This document shows, piece after piece, positions 2,097 to 46,241 of a stretch of DNA of 50,868 nt. Within the stretch, counting starts at the first letter, position 1; every line of letters begins with the position of its first letter. Origin of the DNA: Candidatus Nanoarchaeia archaeon (GTDB lineage Bacteria > Patescibacteriota > Microgenomatia > Woykebacterales > RBG-16-39-9b); assembly GCA_036514715.1 (NCBI GenBank), contig DATBWR010000006.1:1-50868 (forward strand), given 5' to 3'. A program made the position numbers and the translations under genes. Below the pieces are notes generated by a model. It was not told the origin of the DNA. It did no database searches and saw only the letters and a list, made by a program, of their open reading frames with translations.

Positions 2097-3608
2097 TCAA
2101 CCTTCCGCTGCCCGGTACTGAACCGCCTCTGCAATGTGGGCAGGACTAATCTCTTCCTCAGAAGATAGGTCGGCAATGGTTCTGGCAACTTTCAAAAGTC
2201 TAATATAACCCCGAGCCGAAATTTGGAAACGGTTAATAGCCGCTGATAGGAGCTTTTTGCAATCTTCCGAGAGTTTGCAAATTTCCTTCACTTGACGGGC
2301 AGTCATTTCTGAGTTGGCCATGAGTTTAAGGCTAGCGAGTCGCTTAGTTTGCCGGTCGCGAGCCTTTTGGACTCTTCCCCGAATTATTTTTGATTCTTCC
2401 CCAACCGGTAAATTGACCAGCTCTCTTGTTTTTACCGCCGGAACATTAACAAAAATATCAATCCTATCTAATATGGGACCGGAAAGCCGCTTTTGGTAAC
2501 GCGTTACTTGAGAGGGCAAACAGCTACAGGTTCTTGTAGTCTCGCCAAAATAACCACAAGGGCAGGGGTTGGCAGCAGCGACCAGTGTAAATCTAGCCGG
2601 AAAAGTAACGTTACTAGCCGCTCTGGAGACAGTTACGAAACCATCTTCCAGGGGTTGTCTTAAGGCTTCCAAAACGTGACGAGGAAATTCGGGAAACTCA
2701 TCCAGAAAAAGTACTCCACGGTGGGCTTGGGAAATTTCTCCTGGTTTGGGATTTGTACCACCACCAATAATCCCGACACTGCTAGCAGTATGGTGAGGAG
2801 CACGAAACGGTCTCGCCCGTATTAAACCCTCTTGCACGCTGCTAAGAACGGAATAAATTTTGGTGACTTCAACCGCTTCATCAAAGGTCAGCTTAGGTAA
2901 AATGGAGGGGAGGGAGCGGGCGAGCATTGTCTTACCTGCTCCAGGCGGCCCCTTAAGTAGAACATTGTGGCCACCGGAGGCAGCGATTTCCAAAGCTCTT
3001 TTGGCTTGTTCCTGACCCCGCACGTCTTTCATATCAAATTCCGAAAAGTTAAAGTCTTCGAACTTAAATTTTGCTTTCTTAAGGGCGGTAATCGGCTTGA
3101 TTTGTGAGAGGTGGTCAAAACACTCTTTGATACTCCCAGCAGGGAAAATTTTTAGCCCAGTAACGACCGAAGCTTCGATGGCGTTGGCAGAGGCAGTGAT
3201 TAAATTTTCAAACCCCTGCTCCTTTGCCATCGAGGCAAGTAACAGCGCGCCCCGGGTCGCATTGATCGACCCATCTAAAGAAAGTTCCCCAAAGACCAGT
3301 GTTTTAGGCAAATCGGCAGAAAGTTGTCCACTGGCAACCAAAATCCCCAAGGCAATTGGCAGGTCAAAACTAGGACCTTCTTTGGGTAGATCAGCCGGAG
3401 CTAAATTAACCGTGATCCTTTTGGCGGGAAAGTCCGCTCCGGTGTTCTTTATAGCCGCTCGAACCCGTTCCTTTGATTCTTCAACTGCCTTATCTGGTAA
3501 ACCGACAATGGTAAAAGAAGGTAAGCCTTGCGAGGCAATATCAACTTCAACTGTAATCGGAACTGCCTCTAAGCCAGCTAATGCACCAGAAAAAACTTTG
3601 GCAAGCAT
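2097..3608 (-). CDS. comM: YifB/ComM family Mg-chelatase-like AAA+ ATPase
   Basis: Lon-like N-terminus (GLPDKAVEES), Walker A GPPGAGKT, GEISQAHRGVLFLDE, AANPCPCG. Confidence 0.93.
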   Translation of the reverse strand: MLAKVFSGALAGLEAVPITVEVDIASQGLPSFTIVGLPDKAVEESKERVRAAIKNTGADFPAKRITVNLAPADLPKEGPSFDLPIALGILVASGQLSADLPKTLVFGELSLDGSINATRGALLLASMAKEQGFENLITASANAIEASVVTGLKIFPAGSIKECFDHLSQIKPITALKKAKFKFEDFNFSEFDMKDVRGQEQAKRALEIAASGGHNVLLKGPPGAGKTMLARSLPSILPKLTFDEAVEVTKIYSVLSSVQEGLIRARPFRAPHHTASSVGIIGGGTNPKPGEISQAHRGVLFLDEFPEFPRHVLEALRQPLEDGFVTVSRAASNVTFPARFTLVAAANPCPCGYFGETTRTCSCLPSQVTRYQKRLSGPILDRIDIFVNVPAVKTRELVNLPVGEESKIIRGRVQKARDRQTKRLASLKLMANSEMTARQVKEICKLSEDCKKLLSAAINRFQISARGYIRLLKVARTIADLSSEEEISPAHIAEAVQYRAAEG

Positions 3609-10728: not shown

Positions 10729-11520
10729 TTATTCAGGTATTAATTCATCGATCCTCTTGATCGCCTTAGCTTTCATCTTGCTTTCAGTTTCGATCAAAAC
10801 CGAGCGAAAAAGGGTTGGACCCTCCTCCACCCATTCAAATTTGACCGGCTCTGTGTCTTTCTGTTTTTTAATAATAATCTGGGGCTCTACCCCTAAAACT
10901 GAATGTAGTGCTCCGCTCATACCGATATCGGTCACAAAGGCAGTTCCACCCGGCATAATCCAAGGGTCAGCACTCGGAACATGGGTATGAGTTCCCAAAA
11001 CTGCCGTTACCCGACCGTCCAAAAACCACCCCATAGCAGCCTTTTCACTGGTTGCCTCGGCATGAAAATCGACAATTACAAAATCGGGTTTTTCCTTTTT
11101 CACCTGATCCAAAAGTATTGTATCAACAGTACGGTAAGGCTCCTCAGTTGGGCCTTCCATCCATTGCCTACCAATAATATTAATAACCAAAACTTTTTTT
11201 GTGCCGATCTTAACAATCGTAAAGCCAAACCCCGGGCTATCAGAGGGGTAGTTGGCCGGGCGGATCACGGTTGGATCGCTATCCAGAGTTTGGTTGAATT
11301 CAGGTTTAAACCAAATGTGGTTGCCACTAGTAAAAATATCCACTCCGTACTCCCGCAGTTCATCAACTCGCTCGGCTGTTGCCCCTTTACCATGAGAAAG
11401 ATTTTCGATATTGGCAATCACCAAATCGATTTTTTCTTTTTTACGCAAGTTAGGAAGCACTTCGGCTACTGCCTTACGGCCAAGTTTTGCAACTACATCA
11501 CCAATTATTAAAATCTTCAT
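10729..11520 (-). CDS. ymdB: YmdB/TIGR00282 metallophosphoesterase
   Basis: GDVV, NIENL, SGNHIW, DFHAEATSEK and GTHTHV motifs. Confidence 0.95.
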   Translation of the reverse strand: MKILIIGDVVAKLGRKAVAEVLPNLRKKEKIDLVIANIENLSHGKGATAERVDELREYGVDIFTSGNHIWFKPEFNQTLDSDPTVIRPANYPSDSPGFGFTIVKIGTKKVLVINIIGRQWMEGPTEEPYRTVDTILLDQVKKEKPDFVIVDFHAEATSEKAAMGWFLDGRVTAVLGTHTHVPSADPWIMPGGTAFVTDIGMSGALHSVLGVEPQIIIKKQKDTEPVKFEWVEEGPTLFRSVLIETESKMKAKAIKRIDELIPE

Positions 11521-11521
11521 C

Positions 11522-11587
11522 GATTTAGGATTTATGATCTAGGGTTTAAGATATCTAAAATCTGACATCTTAGATCTTCGATCTAAT
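11522..11587. repeat. Inverted heptamer tandem array filling the rny-ymdB spacer
   Basis: GATTTAG GATTTAT GATCTAG GGTTTAA GAT, then ATCTAAA ATCTGAC ATCTTAG ATCTTCG ATCTAAT. Confidence 0.7.
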
Positions 11588-13070
11588 GTGCTACTGACTC
11601 GGCTCTAGTTTCACGAATAACCGTTACTTTCACCTGTCCCGGATAGGTAATCGAGTCATGAATTTTCTCCGAAATATCGTGGGCCAGCACAGTAAGGGTA
11701 TCGTCATCAACCTGTTCCGGGTAAACTATTACCCGCACCTCACGTCCAGCAGCAATCGCGAAAGATTTATCAACACCTTTGAAGGAGCTGGCAACATTTT
11801 CGATTTCCGTCACGCGCTTGATGTAGTCTTCGACTGCTTCATGACGTGCACCAGGACGGCTGCCGGAAATAGCATCAGCAATCCAGACAATTACCGATTC
11901 CGGAGCGGAAAAGGGTTTATCCTCGTGGTGTTCGGCAACCGCGTTAATGACTTTCTGGTCGATATTGAATTTCTTAAGGTAGTCAACACCAAGTTGGACA
12001 TGGGTTCCTTCCTGCTCGCTGGTAAAAACTTTACCAATATCGTGGAAGAGACACCCAAGACGCACCATGTTAACATCAGCACCGATCATCCGGGCAATTG
12101 CCATACCAATTTTAGTTTCTTCTTCGGTGTGCTGGAGAAGGTTCTGACCATAAGAGAAACGCCATTTAAATCTCCCTAAGGTTTCAACAATTTCGTTGGG
12201 TAAGTTGTGCACCCCCACTGCAGCACAGAGTTTTTCTCCTTCGGCCCGTCGGATTTTCTCAAAGTCGGATCTCACTTGCTCGACAATTTCCTCAATTCGG
12301 GCCGGGTGAATTCGTCCATCCACCATCAGCTTTTCGAGGGCAACTTTAGCAACTTCTCTTCGTTCCCCGTCAAAAGAAGAAAGTCGAATTGTTCCCGGAG
12401 AGTCATCCAGATCTACATCAACTCCAGTAGAGAGTTCAAAAGCGCGGATATTTCTACCCTCACGACCGATAATCCTACCCTTCATATCTTCGTCCTCAAA
12501 GCGAACGATTGAGGTGGTGTATTCAGCAACGTAATCAGTCGCACCGTTTTTCATGGCATCAATCAAAATCGCTTTGGCTTTTTCATCCGCCTCTTTTTTA
12601 ACCGCCTCTTCCGCCTCCCTGATCCGCCGGGAAACTTCACTTTTAAGCTTGGTTTCCGTTGCTTCTAAAATAAGTTTTTTGGCTTCTTCCCTGGTTATTC
12701 CAGCGACTTTTTCCAGTTTGCCGGCTAACTCACCTTTTCCTTTTTCAATCTCTTCTTCCCTTAATTTGAAAGAGTTTTCCCTAGATTCAAGCTCGCTAAT
12801 TTTTTTATCAAGAGTCTCTTCTTTAGCAACCACCCTTGCCTCAAGCTGTAGAACCTCAGAACGTACCTTGCGGGTTTCCTCTTCGGCCTCACGCTTAATC
12901 TTAAACGCCTCATTTTTGGCATCAAGAATAATTTCCCGGGCATCGGTTGGTTCTTTGTCTTCTTTATCTTTTTTGGTTTGGGGAAGTCGGCCTTTAATTA
13001 CGTTCTGGTACGCGTAAGCTCCTGCCCCTCCGACTAAAAGGGCTACAATGGCTATTAAAACTGGGTCCAT
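11583..13070 (-). CDS. rny: Ribonuclease Y
   Basis: N-terminal TM and coiled coil, KH domain (KGRIIGREGRNIR), HD domain (LFHDIGK, HHE, DAISGSRPGAR). Confidence 0.97.
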   Translation of the reverse strand: MDPVLIAIVALLVGGAGAYAYQNVIKGRLPQTKKDKEDKEPTDAREIILDAKNEAFKIKREAEEETRKVRSEVLQLEARVVAKEETLDKKISELESRENSFKLREEEIEKGKGELAGKLEKVAGITREEAKKLILEATETKLKSEVSRRIREAEEAVKKEADEKAKAILIDAMKNGATDYVAEYTTSIVRFEDEDMKGRIIGREGRNIRAFELSTGVDVDLDDSPGTIRLSSFDGERREVAKVALEKLMVDGRIHPARIEEIVEQVRSDFEKIRRAEGEKLCAAVGVHNLPNEIVETLGRFKWRFSYGQNLLQHTEEETKIGMAIARMIGADVNMVRLGCLFHDIGKVFTSEQEGTHVQLGVDYLKKFNIDQKVINAVAEHHEDKPFSAPESVIVWIADAISGSRPGARHEAVEDYIKRVTEIENVASSFKGVDKSFAIAAGREVRVIVYPEQVDDDTLTVLAHDISEKIHDSITYPGQVKVTVIRETRAESVAH

Positions 13071-13218: not shown

Positions 13219-13884
13219 CTATTCTAACTCTTTACGGGACAAACTGTCAACGACTTTTTTGATAATTTCCCAGTCAAAACCTTTTGAAGCTAGATACCGG
13301 CTCATTTTTAATCTAAATTCTTTTGCGTTAAGGTTCTTGTAAGCGGAAAGTTTCTTTTGGGCTGCTTGCTTAGCGGTTTCGAGGGGGTCGGCAGTGTTTT
13401 CTTTCAGAACTTCGTCGATAATGTCTTTCTCAACACCTTTTTGGAAAAGTTCGCTTTTGATAATACGGGGAGAGGCTTTTCTAAATTTTGTCCTTTGTTC
13501 CACCCACCAAGTTGTAAATTCCCTGTCGTTTATTTGCCCGATCTTTTCCAAGCGTTTCAAAACACTTTCCACTGATTTTTCAAAGGATTTTTTCTCCTCC
13601 TCTCCTTTGTCGCTTAACCGCAGTTTCTGGAGAAGGTAGTTGCTAATTTCTCTTTGGGAACGTGGTCGGTAGGAGAGAAACTTGATAGCTTTTTCGAACA
13701 AACGGTCAGTTTGATCGGCAAAAATGAGTTCCTCAACTTTTTTTTGAGAAACTTGTTCACCAATTTTTAACTTATTGAGAATTTTAATTTCAAGAGAGAC
13801 TGCAAAAGCAAACTGCCCGTCAAGGTAAACATTAACCCGTCTTGGGTCTTTTTTACCGGGTTGGATATCAGTAATTAGCGGCAT
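13219..13884 (-). CDS. recX: RecX regulatory protein
   Basis: LSYRPRS..E, INDREF, ELFQKGV and YLASKGF motifs; directly downstream of recA. Confidence 0.92.
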   Translation of the reverse strand: MPLITDIQPGKKDPRRVNVYLDGQFAFAVSLEIKILNKLKIGEQVSQKKVEELIFADQTDRLFEKAIKFLSYRPRSQREISNYLLQKLRLSDKGEEEKKSFEKSVESVLKRLEKIGQINDREFTTWWVEQRTKFRKASPRIIKSELFQKGVEKDIIDEVLKENTADPLETAKQAAQKKLSAYKNLNAKEFRLKMSRYLASKGFDWEIIKKVVDSLSRKELE

Positions 13885-13889
13885 TAAAC

Positions 13890-14930
13890 TTACTCTTCGG
13901 CTTCTTCGTCTTCGGCTTCTTTCATTTCCATCACCGCTTTACCGTTAGCAAAGGCCTCTTTTACCTTTTTTTCGACTTCGGCAAACACTTTCGGGTTTTC
14001 TTGTAGGTAACTTTTGGCAGCTTCCCGACCTTGGGCAATCTTTTGTTTTTCGTATTCAAACCAAGCGCCTGATTTGGCAATGACCCCGGTTTCCACTGCA
14101 GCATCAAGTAGAGAACCTTCGGCACTAATTCCCCTGTCGAACATAATGTCAAATTCTACAGTACGGAAAGGCGGGGCAACTTTATTTTTAACAACTTTAA
14201 CTTTAACTCGGTTGCCTACTACTCGGTCACCTTCGGTAATATTTTCTGTTCGGCGCACATCCAGCCGTACTGATGAGTAAAATTTGAGAGCCCGCCCGCC
14301 CGGAGTAACTTCCGGATTACCAAACATTATTCCAACTTTTTCACGCAATTGATTGATAAAAATCACCAAGGTATTAGATTTAGAAATAGCACTAGCTAGT
14401 TTTCGCATCGCTTGGCTCATAAGACGAGCTTGTAAACCAATGAAGGAATCTCCCATTTCCCCTTCCACTTCGGCTCTTGGTACAAGAGCAGCCACGCTAT
14501 CAACAACTACCACATCGACTGCTCCACTTCTTACTAAGGTCTCAACAATTTCCAAAGCCTGCTCACCGGTGTCCGGTTGGGAAATTAACAGTTCCTTAAT
14601 ATCAACTCCAATTGAGGCTGCCCGCTGTGGATCCAGAGCGTGCTCAGCATCCACAAAAGCAGCTACCCCACCTTTTTTCTGACCCTCCTTTACAACATGC
14701 AAGGCAAGGGTTGTTTTACCGCCACCTTCTGGGCCAAAAATTTCAACAACTCGCCCACGCGGCAAACCACCAACTCCAAGAGCTAGATCCAAACCCATTA
14801 CACCAGTGGAAATTACCTCGACATTCATTTTGTCGCCGGTTTCCCCTAACTTCATAATCGCGCCCTTACCAAATTGTTTTTCAATTTGACCCATGGCGGC
14901 TTTTATAGCTTCTAGTTTGTTACTATCCAT
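13890..14930 (-). CDS. recA: Recombinase RecA
   Basis: [28 protein letters not shown] and GGRALKFY motifs; no intein. Confidence 0.99.
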
Positions 14931-18343: not shown

Positions 18344-18772
18344 TCATTCTGTCGTCTGTTCCTTGAAAGGTGGGATATCTTTCCATAATTGGCTCTTATC
18401 GTCTGGATCCCCAGAGTTGTAATTGACTGTAATCTCCTCATCCTTGTTTATATCCTTAATTGCTCCAAACTCTATTACCTTGTCTTTTGAAATCTTTTTG
18501 TATGTGGCGTTGGGTTTGTAAGAGTGGTTGTAAAGAGCACCGAAACCCAAAGCTATGACAAGTAGATCTTTGTTATCTTCAAAAGAAAAATAATATTTCA
18601 CGAGAATACTTTCCTTCAAATTAGATAAATCATCCATTGGTACCTCGATAACAGGGCAGATTTCGATAACTTCATTCTTTTTTATATCTTTGGAGGCAAA
18701 AACCCCTCTTCCCGCGTTTTTTATTTTTGATTTCGATAAATATATTTTCTTAGATGGATAGAAGGTTTTCAT
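18344..18772 (-). CDS. SET domain-containing protein
   Basis: GRGVFASKDI, LYNHSYKPN and EEITVNY motifs. Start set at ATG 18772, 7 nt after the -10 box. Confidence 0.92.
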   Translation of the reverse strand: MKTFYPSKKIYLSKSKIKNAGRGVFASKDIKKNEVIEICPVIEVPMDDLSNLKESILVKYYFSFEDNKDLLVIALGFGALYNHSYKPNATYKKISKDKVIEFGAIKDINKDEEITVNYNSGDPDDKSQLWKDIPPFKEQTTE

Positions 18773-18779
18773 AGCTGAC

Positions 18780-18803
18780 ATTCTAGCACTCTGGTGGTAA
18801 AAT
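18780..18803. promoter_or_regulatory. Back-to-back extended -10 promoter (SET / nnrD)
   Basis: ATTCTAGCA-CTCTGG-TGGTAAAAT; each -10 box is exactly 7 nt from a start codon. Confidence 0.7.
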
Positions 18804-24702: not shown

Positions 24703-25608
24703 TTACTTGGTTAGACCTTTCTCTTTAAGCTTTTCCTCAATATCGGATAACGACTTGGCTCCCATGTTCTTAAGTTTAACGAGTTTTTCTTTTGGAGCCT
24801 CAAGAAGGTCGTTGACTGTCTCGATACCAGCGTTTTTGAGAGAGTTAGTAATTCGAGTAGAAAGTTCTAGTTCCTCGACACTGGCTGTTTTTTCGATTTT
24901 TGGTCTGACTTGAGTTTCTTCTTTTTCTTTCTTAGGTGGCTTTTTCTGCTCGAAAAGGACTTGAAAAAAGTCAGTTAAAATTTTGGCAGCTTCCTTAACG
25001 GCCTCAGCGGGAGTAACGGTTCCGTCGGTATCAATTTCAAAGGTAAGTTTATCGAAGTTCGTAATTTGTCCGACACGAGTTGCTTCAACCCGGTAATTAA
25101 CTTTAAGTATGGGGGTGAAGTTAGCGTCCAATGGGATTACACCGATACCAAGACCACGTCTACCCTCCACTGGTACGTAGCCCACTCCTTTTTCAGCAGT
25201 CATTTCAATTTCTAGCTTAGTCTTGTTGTCAGAGAGTGTCGCGATCAGTTGCGCAGGGTTGGCAATCTTCATGCCAGCAGGAAGTTTGATATCGGAAGCT
25301 TTTACTTCTTTAGGGCCTTTCTCTTCAAGTGTGAGTTTTACCGGTTTGTCACCCTCAATCTGTAACCTAATTCTTTTTAAATTGAGAAGGATTTCAACCA
25401 CGTCTTCTTTGACTCCCTTGATCGTGGAGTATTCGTGAGCAACTCCAGGGATCTTCACTTGGGTAATTGCCGACCCCGGAAGTGAGGAGAGTAACACCCG
25501 ACGCAGCGCGTTACCTAAGGTCATACCGTAACCCTGGGGAAGGGGCTCCACGGTAATGGAACCGCTTTGAGGGCTTCCTTCCTGAGTAATTCTAATTTGA
25601 TCAACCAT
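24703..25608 (-). CDS. rpoA: RNA polymerase subunit alpha
   Basis: EPLPQGYGMTLGNALRRVLLSS, HEYSTI.GVKED and alpha-CTD. Confidence 0.98.
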   Translation of the reverse strand: MVDQIRITQEGSPQSGSITVEPLPQGYGMTLGNALRRVLLSSLPGSAITQVKIPGVAHEYSTIKGVKEDVVEILLNLKRIRLQIEGDKPVKLTLEEKGPKEVKASDIKLPAGMKIANPAQLIATLSDNKTKLEIEMTAEKGVGYVPVEGRRGLGIGVIPLDANFTPILKVNYRVEATRVGQITNFDKLTFEIDTDGTVTPAEAVKEAAKILTDFFQVLFEQKKPPKKEKEETQVRPKIEKTASVEELELSTRITNSLKNAGIETVNDLLEAPKEKLVKLKNMGAKSLSDIEEKLKEKGLTK

Positions 25609-25694
25609 TTTTACCTCCTAAATATACTTTCAAAAACTTTCTAAAAATTTCCAAAGGCAGATATTAGTTTAGCGCTAATAAACCCCTTTGGGGA

Positions 25695-25803
25695 CTGCTC
25701 GCTAACGCGAGTAGATCGCTTTGCGCTCTGCAGCCTACCGGCTGTAGAATTCGACAACAGTCATCTGCGAGTTCTGCTCCCTATCGGGAGTAGAATTCGA
25801 CAA
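25695..25803. repeat. REP-like mosaic of three CTGC-N4-TANC-N4'-GTAG hairpins overlapping the rpsD stop
   Basis: Hairpins at 25695-25714, 25728-25747 and 25774-25793; exact 14-nt duplication GTAGAATTCGACAA at 25744 and 25790. Confidence 0.8.
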
Positions 25804-26410
25804 TTGCTTGTTCGTTTATATCCTGACCAATTTCTTCTCTTGAAGGCAATCTTTTAATTTTGCCCACCAAAGCTTTTCTTTCTAACCATTCAGTTAATTT
25901 TTCCTCATCAATACTGGAAGCTGCTTCTTTAACAAAACCGAAGTTGGCGGCTTTCCCTCGCAAACTGATAACATCGCCCGGCTTTACCTTGTAAGAAGGG
26001 ACGTTAACCCTCTGGCCGTTTACCAAAACATGACCGTGGTTGGTCAACTGCCGAGATTGGGCACGGGAGGCGGCAAACCCAAGACGGTAAACAACGTTAT
26101 CGAGTCTTGTCTCCAGTAGCTGAAGTAGGGTCTCACCAGTGGCTCCCTTTTTCTTAGCCGCTTCTTGATAGTATTTTCTAAATTGTCTTTCTAAAAGTCC
26201 GTACATTCTTTTCACTTTTTGCTTTTCTCTAAGCTGAGATCCATAGTCGGATAGTTTTTTTTTCAACGCCCTCTGCCCATGCTGACCAGGGGGAACAGCC
26301 CCCTTTTTATTAATTGGATGTTTTGGTGAGGCACTTCTTTTGCCTTTCAAGAAAAGGTTCGTTCCTTCTCTTCTATCCAGTCTGAATTTTGGTCCAGTGT
26401 AACGTGCCAT
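25781..26410 (-). CDS. rpsD: 30S ribosomal protein S4
   Basis: PPGQHG, QLREKQK, LETRLDNVVYRLG and IVEFYSR motifs. Confidence 0.98.
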   Translation of the reverse strand: MARYTGPKFRLDRREGTNLFLKGKRSASPKHPINKKGAVPPGQHGQRALKKKLSDYGSQLREKQKVKRMYGLLERQFRKYYQEAAKKKGATGETLLQLLETRLDNVVYRLGFAASRAQSRQLTNHGHVLVNGQRVNVPSYKVKPGDVISLRGKAANFGFVKEAASSIDEEKLTEWLERKALVGKIKRLPSREEIGQDINEQAIVEFYSR

Positions 26411-26484
26411 AATTAATTCTTATTAAATATATCGTGCGCATAAAATTTCATAATATTTTTCGAAATTACCTTTAGCACGATATT

Positions 26485-27295: not shown

Positions 27296-27409
27296 TTAAC
27301 CTTGCCTCTGCTTGTGGCGAGGGTTGTCACAAATAACAAACAGCACGCCGCGGCGCTTGACAATTTTACACTTTATACAACGTCTTTTGATTGATGCTTG
27401 TACTTTCAT
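27296..27409 (-). CDS. rpmJ: 50S ribosomal protein L36 (Zn-binding form)
   Basis: Not in the track. [37 protein letters not shown]. Confidence 0.97.
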
Positions 27410-44287: not shown

Positions 44288-44665
44288 TTAACGGGTGTGT
44301 TTTTTAATCCACTCGGTAATTTTTTCAATAGTTGGCTTCTTGTTTTCCACCCACAGCGCAAAATCAACAATTTCTTTATTTTCAGCTTCAAATTTTCTGT
44401 CGTTCAAAATTAGAAACTCGATCATACAAACTGTGGCAGTTCTCTTGTTACCATCGGCGAACATATGGTTAAGCAAGAGTGAGTGGGTTAAGGCAGCTGC
44501 TTTTAACTCTAAACTCGGGTAAAGATCCTCATCGCCAAAGGTAGCTTGAGGACGCGCGGCTGCCGATTCCAATAACCCTAAATCGCGCAAACCGTGCAAA
44601 CCACCAGTGGCTTCAACTATCTCAAAATGGATTTGAATAATATCCTGCGGAGAAAGATATCTCAC
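44288..44665 (-). CDS. Death-on-curing (Fic/Doc) toxin
   Basis: GLRDLGLLESA..RP and HMFADGNKRTA motifs. Confidence 0.92.
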   Translation of the reverse strand: MRYLSPQDIIQIHFEIVEATGGLHGLRDLGLLESAAARPQATFGDEDLYPSLELKAAALTHSLLLNHMFADGNKRTATVCMIEFLILNDRKFEAENKEIVDFALWVENKKPTIEKITEWIKKHTR

Positions 44666-45009: not shown

Positions 45010-45393
45010 TCAAGAAAAGTATTTAGCTAACCTTTTATCAAAAGTTTTGAAAGATCTAGCTTTTTTGCTTTTGGCAAAGGCCAAATTGTAGCAATCTTCT
45101 AAGCTTAAGTTGCTGCCCGCAAACATTTTCAGGGCGGTTTTCAATATCTCATGCTCCTCGAGAAAAATAAACTCCATTTCCAGAATCTGCTCTAGAGTAC
45201 TGGCCGTATCTGGCTTGTTTTGTTTGTAAAAAGAGCTCAAAACCCAGTAGATTTCGAAGTAAACAATAATCGAGGTAAAAAGTTTGACTCTGCCTTCGGC
45301 AGCTTGGCTAAAAAGGCTCTTAACTTCCTGAAACTGCCCCTTATTATCAGCCAAGAGAAATCTTAGAAAAAAATTGGTATCGACAAAGATCAT
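45010..45393 (-). CDS. PIN-domain (VapC-like) toxin
   Basis: IFVDTNFFLR, E, SLEDC and TFDKRL motifs. Confidence 0.9.
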   Translation of the reverse strand: MIFVDTNFFLRFLLADNKGQFQEVKSLFSQAAEGRVKLFTSIIVYFEIYWVLSSFYKQNKPDTASTLEQILEMEFIFLEEHEILKTALKMFAGSNLSLEDCYNLAFAKSKKARSFKTFDKRLAKYFS

Positions 45394-45771: not shown

Positions 45772-46241
45772 TTAAGAAATCGGCACAAGTGTTAACAAAA
45801 CAATCTCTGTTTTGAAATATTTTTCTATTCCGGAAAAAAACCCTTTTTGGTTTTCCTGTAGTTTATCCCTTGGACCCTTAACCTCCACAAAGAAAAACTT
45901 TTTATCTTTATAAACAAATAAATCCGGTGGTTGGGTACGGTTAGTTTTTATTTGGGACCTTAAGAAGTTAATCCCTTCGGTACCAATTAACTTCTCTAAC
46001 AACCCCAGTTTCCTTTTGTGGGGTTGGTAGATATACTGCTCAATTAAAACATTAAAGCCCAAGCCAAAATAGTGAAGAGCGGCTATCCATTCATAAAAAT
46101 GAAATTGCGGTTGGGAAAGAGCAATTCTTAAATCTTCTTCGTCAAAAAGGTCAGGGTATTCTCTCTTCCATTTAATGAGTAGTTTTCCAGAAGTCCATTC
46201 TTGTTTGAGAGTGGGTCAAAGAGAAGTTCTTCATTTTTCAT
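45772..46241 (-). pseudogene. VRR-NUC domain nuclease with a frameshift near the 5' end
   Basis: PPDLFV...FFVEVKGPRDKLQENQ motif. The catalytic frame is open from about 46215, but ATG 46241 is out of frame (span 3n+2). A TTGACT-17-TAAAAT promoter lies upstream. Confidence 0.7.

Follow-up and report, generated by a model that had tools for sequence, protein, structure and literature searches.

Tandem Tyr-Ser-Arg-stop hairpins at the 3′ end of rpsD in a Woykebacteria-like clade

Intercistronic repetitive extragenic palindromic (REP) sequences of Escherichia coli can shield upstream mRNA from 3′ exonucleases and make expression differ among the genes of an operon. Integrative elements duplicate the 3′ end of a target gene, as at the attachment (att) sites of tRNA and tmRNA genes, and leave that gene intact. 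Ribosomal-protein operons carry further elements. Ribosomal protein S4 is the established repressor of the operon containing rpsD and rpoA in E. coli and of rpsD in Bacillus, and several unrelated S4-binding leaders have been described (PMC7247131; PMC3616713; PMC3849166). Another example is the L17 downstream element (Rfam RF01708), a conserved structured RNA located downstream of rplQ and suggested to act in feedback (Weinberg et al., 2010; PMC2864571). Here we describe an array of three hairpins that begins within the last codons of rpsD, the gene for S4, and continues into the spacer before rpoA. It lies in a 50.9-kb stretch of DNA (contig DATBWR010000006.1, positions 1 to 50,868), which is referred to as the window.

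The rpsD gene belongs to the end of an spc/alpha ribosomal-protein cluster, read on the minus strand in the order infA, rpmJ, rpsM, rpsK, rpsD, rpoA, rplQ, rplM, rpsI, and a spacer of 172 nt separates it from rpoA (Table 1). Its last codons are ATT GTC GAA TTC TAC TCC CGA TAG. The spacer then reads GTT GTC GAA TTC TAC AGC CGG TAG, followed by ATC TAC TCG CGT TAG, so that Tyr-Ser-Arg-stop, the first three residues of which form the C-terminus of all S4 homologs found, is spelled three times. The pattern CTACNNNCGNTAGNNNGCAG (CTAC-N3-CGNTAG-N3-GCAG) has exactly three matches in the window, all on the rpsD strand. Dinucleotide shuffles contain a mean of 0.00 matches and none of 100 reaches three, while allowing two mismatches adds no site in the window.

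Each match is the center of a unit (u1 to u3) of about 30 nt that forms a stem-loop with seven outer pairs (GAGTTCT with AGARCTY), an A.C mismatch, five inner pairs (C-NNN-C with G-NNN-G, where NNN is the serine codon) and a GNUA loop. The mismatch sets the A of the Tyr codon against the C of GCAG. The Arg codon contributes the closing C and the first loop G, whereas the stop codon contributes the loop U and A and, with its G, starts the 3′ arm; the closing pair therefore needs CGN followed by TAG. In u1 the 5′ arm consists of the last six rpsD codons, and the true stop TAG (25781-25783) runs from the loop into the 3′ arm, of which it supplies the first base. The non-coding u2 begins 46 nt further on and reads E-F-Y-S-R-stop with the serine codon AGC, and u3, which reads I-Y-S-R-stop, follows u2 after 33 nt and in frame with it. 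The original prediction, made from the letters of the window, had singled out three Tyr-Ser-Arg-stop hairpins of one shape with different stems and codons, and both the pattern matches and the folds bear it out. The 14-nt exact duplication that it reported is also present (TTGTCGAATTCTAC) and sits inside a 31-nt repeat of 84% identity. The alternative GTAG/CTGC register that it proposed corresponds to an outward extension of every stem, with C-G and U-A pairs on either side of the conserved A.C mismatch. The outer arms of adjacent units are also complementary to each other.

Table 1. Features of the rpsD–rpoA region, in window coordinates.
Feature	Position	Strand	Basis
rpsD (ribosomal protein S4, 209 aa, C-terminus ...IVEFYSR-TAG)	25781..26410	-	Open reading frame; Pfam Ribosomal_S4 and S4 on identical protein
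Unit 1 (u1): GAATTCT-A-CTCCC-GATA-GGGAG-C-AGAACTC	25769..25798	-	Pattern match; covariance model R1 41.9 bits, E 6e-11
Unit 2 (u2), non-coding: GAATTCT-A-CAGCC-GGTA-GGCTG-C-AGAGCGC	25723..25752	-	Pattern match; R1 38.4 bits, E 9e-10
Unit 3 (u3), non-coding: ...ATCT-A-CTCGC-GTTA-GCGAG-C-AG...	25690..25719	-	Pattern match; R1 34.0 bits, E 2.5e-8
Pattern match 1 (includes true rpsD stop)	25774-25793	-	CTACTCCCGATAGGGAGCAG
Pattern match 2	25728-25747	-	CTACAGCCGGTAGGCTGCAG
Pattern match 3	25695-25714	-	CTACTCGCGTTAGCGAGCAG
14-nt exact direct repeat, copy 1 (I-V-E-F-Y codons of rpsD)	25790..25803	-	Repeat family D2
14-nt exact direct repeat, copy 2 (forms 5′ flank of u2)	25744..25757	-	Repeat search
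Fourth stem-loop, unrelated to the array (CCCCAAAGG...CCUUUGG), between array and rpoA ribosome-binding site	25651..25691	-	Inverted repeat I1; minimum free energy and centroid folds
rpoA Shine-Dalgarno AGGAGG (25614-25619) and ATG (25606-25608)	25606..25619	-	Direct reading
rpoA (RNA polymerase alpha subunit, 301 aa), next cistron	24703..25608	-	Open reading frame; Pfam RNA_pol_L, RNA_pol_A_bac and RNA_pol_A_CTD on identical gene

The three local hairpins appear in both the minimum free energy and the centroid folds and are the main feature of the structure predicted for the spacer (216 nt, -66.9 kcal/mol, z -3.25). The hairpin at the rpsD stop is the most stable stop-spanning structure among 60 gene ends of the window, at -15.4 kcal/mol against -11.1 kcal/mol for the next. 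None of the other gene ends in this set of 60 has a comparable stop-spanning hairpin or an above-chance downstream copy of its last codons.

The rpsD–rpoA junction was recovered from ten further lineages, designated here by L numbers. In seven of these, a Microgenomates/Woykebacteria-like group with S4 proteins 78-82% identical (L163, L164, L166, L169, L170, L172 and L174), the same hairpin is found at the CGN-TAG end of the gene (7/7), and each lineage has one or two more Tyr-x-Arg-stop copies downstream. All eight hairpin-bearing lineages, the window included, end rpsD with CGN and TAG. The use of CGN for the last Arg was rejected as evidence because CGN is common genome-wide (65% of Arg codons in this genome); the uniform TAG alone is suggestive. 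Variation in copy number among relatives had been predicted from the window, and both the number of units and their state of decay do differ. Intact second units occur in the window, L169 and L174, and that of L163 is nearly so; in L164, L166, L170 and L172 this unit has decayed. The third unit is intact in the window only, with decayed counterparts in L163, L164 and L172. A unit of the AGY type, orthologous to u2, is present in L163, L169, L172 and L174. The modal spacing is 33 nt, which is found in L169, in L174, twice in L172 and from u2 to u3 in the window, and the remaining spacings range from 26 to 48 nt. In L176 (S4 74% identical) the hairpin is re-shaped around AGG-TAG and a second hairpin is present.

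No variation was found within the strain. The spacer is identical in two independent assemblies of the same strain, and contigs of that strain from eight metagenome runs contain no indels or joints indicative of copy-number variation; two identical Logan contigs come from two metagenome runs beyond those eight. In a species-representative set, the best matches are to Curtissbacteria and Daviesbacteria (56-59% identity). Judging from these matches and from the names of the S4 homologs, the host, an uncultured bacterium of groundwater or soil, belongs to the Candidate Phyla Radiation (CPR) near Woykebacteria (Microgenomates).

Among approximately 170 distant bacteria, a single similar hairpin occurs at the S4 stop in three CPR-type contigs (L086, L099 and L050), with an E-value below 0.01 in the broad search for L086 only. 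The S4 protein of L086 is 55% identical, and the contig has (2592-2660) one matching hairpin at the S4 stop, TAT TCT CGA TAG AGA. Tyr-Ser-Arg-stop is spelled again there, as TAT TCA AGA TAA, 22 nt later and without a hairpin, which may reflect an independent or very old duplication. The hairpin that caps the stop codon may thus be older than the tandem array, which is specific to this clade.

The stems of the units covary. Over 14 units, pair 10-21 is AU in seven and UA in seven, pair 11-20 is CG in seven, GC in five and GU in two, and pair 12-19 takes five pair types with one mismatch. These three inner pairs change on both sides with almost no unpaired cells, the compensatory change expected of a structured RNA. 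The covariation score is 0.416 versus 0.197 for shuffles, none of 500 of which reaches the observed value, and controls with slid partners score 0.04-0.12. Overall, 81% of cells are paired versus 36-44% with slid partners, although the units were picked as intact, which inflates the percentage paired but not the double-sided changes. Where the unit is coding, its non-coding 3′ arm changes together with the synonymous third base of the serine codon (TCC/GGA, TCA/TGA, TCG/CGA, TCT/AGA, AGC/GTT and AGT/GTT).

Conservation extends to positions that code for nothing. Four-fold degenerate sites of rpsD differ between lineages at 55-76%, which amounts to saturation, and the linkers are unalignable, while the 21-nt core of the non-coding u2 retains 71-95% identity among six lineages. 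The second unit is thus conserved beyond neutral expectation. Loop bases G14, U16 and A17 and the closing pair C13-G18 are invariant over the units, and the A8.C23 mismatch is found in 13 of 14, non-coding units included. The conserved C of this mismatch is odd, since U would pair. Together, the conserved loop, closing pair and mismatch suggest sequence-specific recognition and not bare stability alone.

A serine codon is kept in 10 of 12 non-coding units, mostly of the other class than that of the neighboring unit, and the remaining two have AAT and TTT, either of which a single change would turn into a serine codon. The stem flips from T-A to A-T and from C-G to G-C have no route through wobble intermediates. 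Since the copies share ancestry, the independent events number perhaps two or three and the statistics are weak. Three candidate explanations can be put forward for this retention. A factor could read the minor groove and be blind to a flipped pair; every unit could formerly have been the real gene end; or selection could act against lethal in-register deletions.

Two features indicate that the gene end was duplicated in tandem: a period of 33 nt, which keeps the units in register, and a common 5′ flank carrying the E-F-Y codons. In an ancestor of the Woykebacteria-like clade, a module of about 33 nt, comprising the last six rpsD codons (E-F-Y-S-R-stop) and some 14 downstream bases and forming a stem-loop, would have been duplicated in register to yield up to three tandem units. 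The flanks of units in one genome evolve together: GAA occurs in both u1 and u2 in the window alone, whereas L174 has GAG in both. In L174 the flanks of the two units are identical over 9 nt on the 5′ side and 10 nt on the 3′ side, while the inner stems differ at all variable positions. The sister lineages L172 and L166, whose S4 proteins differ by 21 amino acids, carry the serine codons TCT-AGC-TCA and AGC-TCT, respectively, so the gene is closed by a different unit in each. In-register loss or exchange of units has replaced the real rpsD end without harm. The earlier claim that rearrangement never disrupts the gene is upheld to this extent, units being exchanged with rpsD intact, but the route is unequal recombination or slippage and not insertion.

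Much of this history could also arise with no function for the extra copies. Slippage or template switching at a quasi-palindrome could copy the gene-end hairpin as a mutational by-product, and the copies would then decay. Such a process would account for the 33-nt period, the identical 14-nt flanks and their concerted evolution, and it agrees with the many decayed copies, with the absence of the module from sister clades and with the ability of both strands to fold. It does not readily explain why u2 keeps its own AGY-type stem despite saturated synonymous sites, and templating of one arm by the other would not preserve unpaired loop bases or the A.C mismatch. The bias of G.U pairs to the sense strand also speaks against it, and we regard this explanation as rather unlikely.

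The repeated Tyr-Ser-Arg-stop could instead serve translation, if read-through of UAG or a frameshift reached a second E-F-Y-S-R-stop as a back-up end, or if u2 were translated as a mini-ORF (open reading frame), MTVVEFYSR. The second unit is indeed in frame with the real stop in L164, L169, L170, L172 and L174 (27, 33 or 48 nt), u3 shares the frame of u2 both in the window and in L172, and an ATG precedes u2 in the window. A 33-nt duplication, however, gives in-frame spacing automatically, and the distance to u2 breaks the frame in the window (46 nt), in L163 (26 nt) and in L166 (32 nt). The ATG is conserved in no relative, and TAG is an unremarkable stop codon in the window, where 14 of 60 genes end with it. 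Translated back-up ends are the least probable of the explanations considered. The mini-ORF and other small spacer ORFs were rejected, as they are not conserved in relatives.

The original prediction had attributed the array to repeated insertion of a REP-like element. A REP-like or other miniature mobile hairpin that inserts repeatedly at the rpsD end and carries its own Ser-Arg-stop would fit the palindromes with CTAC/GTAG-like tetranucleotides at a gene 3′ end, and every copy does restore the end of the reading frame. Dispersed copies were sought with a covariance model built from the units (R1). Run with filters off, it finds only the three rpsD copies in the window, the next best match (E 0.02) being the reverse strand of u1. 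Over approximately 45 kb of relatives' flanks and 0.8 Mb of other loci, all matches are at rpsD ends. The motif is therefore restricted to one locus within the sequence searched, and there the inference of a REP-like element fails by the criterion of the original prediction itself, recurrence of the motif elsewhere. A scan of 2.9 million viral contigs of IMG/VR for TTCTACNNNCGNTAGNNNGCAGA returned a single match, inside a phage ORF and without a hairpin; it is taken as chance, and a viral or mobile origin was rejected. No transposase, REP-associated tyrosine transposase (RAYT), IS200-type gene or reverse transcriptase is encoded among 30 non-ribosomal ORFs of the window. Orthologous copies occupy a single site in the different lineages, and their 33-nt period is typical for tandem duplication. 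Moreover, GTAG is found on the 3′ side of the palindrome, where it is paired with CTGC within the stem, whereas REPs carry it on the opposite, 5′ side. Repeated insertion is accordingly highly improbable.

Diversity-generating retroelements are recognized by a template repeat of about 100 nt that differs at adenines and by a nearby reverse transcriptase. Such an element was ruled out for the array: the repeats are 30 nt long, the paired stem flips are not A-specific, and the scanned ORFs include no reverse transcriptase. A search of the whole window against Rfam at the gathering threshold returned tRNA only, and at E<=10 the region 25550-25850 gave only chance-level matches to sX8 (13 bits) and sR47 (10.5 bits), with none to Alpha_RBS, an S4 leader or the L17 downstream element at the array. 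The array is real, non-random, conserved in the clade and covarying, and no described RNA family matches it.

The reading we favor, although we would not give it quite an even chance, is that the array is a selectively maintained, cis-acting element of the operon mRNA, read by a factor and acting in stability, processing or feedback between rpsD and rpoA. There is no doubt that the operon mRNA includes the sense strand; we infer that this sense mRNA is also the acting molecule, that a factor binds it and that expression is affected. Selection would keep the units as structured, sequence-specific elements of the polycistronic mRNA. Once the ribosome departs from the rpsD stop, the hairpins would fold and be recognized by a specific factor, and they would punctuate the operon between the ribosomal-protein cistrons and rpoA-rplQ-rplM-rpsI. 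One possible route is protection of the upstream mRNA 3′ end after endonucleolytic cleavage, for which the window encodes an RNase Y; another, alone or in combination, is a block to exonucleases or ribosomes. The outcome would be a set ratio of S13, S11 and S4 to alpha-subunit expression. The original prediction had suggested that the array could act as a structural switch between the two genes.

The factor might be S4 itself. As an autogenous operator, the hairpins would bind S4, or a different protein encoded by the operon, at the stop codon of its own gene, and excess S4 could hinder termination or ribosome passage or alter the expression or decay of the downstream cistrons. Conservation of the loop, closing pair and mismatch in non-coding units suggests a sequence-specific ligand, and several tandem sites fit cooperative binding. 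S4 already serves as a repressor elsewhere, of the corresponding operon in E. coli and of rpsD in Bacillus, and the feedback role proposed for the L17 downstream element is a parallel. For this locus, however, the argument would be one of guilt by association. The targets known for S4 are 5′ leaders that form pseudoknots or multi-helix junctions and do not resemble simple hairpins, and a ribosome completing rpsD would strip a protein off u1. Beyond the lack of an Rfam S4 leader or Alpha_RBS match, R1 finds nothing similar upstream of the window rpsM or in the rrsH-rrlH-rrfH rRNA operon, where the best score is 6.9 bits (E 2.8) for an rRNA that is that of E. coli and not of the host. A 16S fragment around CCUACGGGAGGCAGCAG was rejected as a mimic, as it resembles only the u1 stem of the window, which is variable in relatives. 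An S4 operator is unlikely, though it ranks first among the rival explanations. A composite is also conceivable, in which S4 or another factor reads a multi-site 3′ operator at the gene's stop, giving feedback from the 3′ side of a ribosomal-protein operon, while in-register gain or loss swaps the gene end harmlessly because every unit spells Tyr-Ser-Arg-stop. It would explain the moves of the terminal serine between TCN and AGY among close relatives, and also the 'coding-competent' non-coding copies, which selection against lethal in-register deletion would maintain, but we hold it to be quite doubtful.

Several observations weigh against a selected mRNA element, in addition to the choice of intact units for the covariation set. 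The extra units are decayed in four of eight lineages (L164, L166, L170 and L172), and L178 (S4 75% identical) and L180 (66%) have TAA ends and lack the module. Decay in half of the lineages and absence from neighboring clades imply that the extra copies are dispensable. Classical intrinsic terminators are ruled out, as no U-tract follows the hairpins; a terminator scan flagged none of the three units, which are followed by GCAGA... and no T-run. None of the RNA sequencing runs searched for the region contains it. The antisense strand, moreover, folds better in the window: over the array (25685-25805), the plus strand reaches -58.9 kcal/mol (z -7.2) and the mRNA strand -43.7 kcal/mol (z -3.45), and for u1 the values are -20.2 and -12.5 kcal/mol, respectively. 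The difference arises because both sense A.C mismatches of u1 turn into G.U on the opposite strand.

That asymmetry, and the fact that the conserved sense A.C is G.U on the other strand, would suit a role at the level of DNA or of an antisense transcript, with cruciforms or single-stranded hairpins serving recombination, replication or nuclease targeting. The sense fold is equal to or better than the antisense fold in L166, L169, L163 and L174, however, so that neither strand is consistently better across lineages, and the sense strand has 19 G.U pairs versus 8 A.C or C.A, with the conserved mismatch left out of the count. No gene or convincing promoter drives antisense transcription across the array, and dimeric DNA-binding proteins do not read operators through covarying arms. 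A DNA-level or antisense role is very unlikely.

Other features surround the array. The motif CTGCCTTTGG upstream of rpoA is also present in L163, L164 and L169, with a different pairing partner in each. Searches of the rpsD–rpoA spacers for an internal promoter or terminator gave only weak, lineage-specific matches. By eye, a sigma-70-like sequence (TTGACA or TTGAAA, 17 nt, TAAAGT) can be seen in the spacers of L172 (~3185-3225) and L166 (~1615-1650), directly following and overlapping the decayed third unit, which hints at an internal rpoA promoter in this sub-lineage. In the ENA contig L173 (3270-4183), rpoA is split into two ORFs (236 and 84 aa), but it is intact in the otherwise identical Logan contig L172, and the split is probably an assembly frameshift.

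Upstream of rpsD, this genome alone has a 74-nt spacer after rpsK (26411-26484, minus strand), whereas the two genes abut or overlap in relatives (spacing <=6 nt). A 9-bp inverted repeat (AUAUCGUGC...GCACGAUAU) lies in this spacer, and rpsD lacks an obvious Shine-Dalgarno sequence. The rpmJ gene (L36, 37 aa) is intact at 27296-27409 (minus strand) between infA and rpsM, although it is skipped in the gene calls of the identical Logan contigs. The RNase Y gene (11583-13070, minus strand) is followed directly by ymdB (10729-11520, minus strand), a pairing known from Bacillus, and recA and recX (13219-14930) lie just upstream of it. Small defense or toxin-type genes on the minus strand stand beside the ribosomal cluster, namely Fic/DOC (44288-44665), PIN (45010-45393) and VRR-NUC (45772-46062), and a SET-domain protein is encoded at 18344-18781 (minus strand).

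The array matters as a non-coding regulatory element, if it is one, built from copied last codons of an essential gene. At 30 nt the covariation-supported unit is compact and gives clear testable predictions, and the exchange of tandem units suggests a simple route by which serine can switch between the TCN and AGY codon classes. Should the extra copies be functionless, the array would be a well-documented tandem duplication of a gene end, of limited wider interest. To our knowledge, very few cis-regulatory RNAs are known in CPR bacteria, and bacterial genes are rarely regulated from their 3′ side.

Among described systems, the L17 downstream element resembles the array in lying directly downstream of a ribosomal-protein gene in the same type of operon, in its lineage-restricted distribution and in the lack of obvious rRNA mimicry. 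It differs in its gene (rplQ), its structure and its hosts (Lactobacillales and Listeria), and it is neither tandem nor overlapping with a coding end. The S4-binding RNAs, which include the E. coli Alpha_RBS pseudoknot, the Bacillus rpsD leader and the leaders of Bacteroidia, Clostridia, Flavobacteria and Fusobacteriales, are likewise cis RNAs of the rpsM-rpsK-rpsD-rpoA-rplQ operon with narrow distributions that evolved independently in different phyla. They are 5′ leaders of complex fold, however, whereas the array consists of simple hairpins at the rpsD 3′ end. REPs and bacterial interspersed mosaic elements (BIMEs) share with the array short GC-rich palindromes placed just after a stop codon and between cistrons, but REPs are RAYT-linked and dispersed in tens to hundreds of copies, while the array motif occupies one locus and no transposase was seen in the window. 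The att sites of integrative elements also present a gene 3′ end in multiple copies with the gene intact after rearrangement. In the array, by contrast, there is no integrated element or integrase, the units are 33 nt apart and their stems differ in a compensatory manner. Set beside these systems, the array is unusual in lying at a 3′ end, in overlapping the stop codon and in being built from copies of the gene end.

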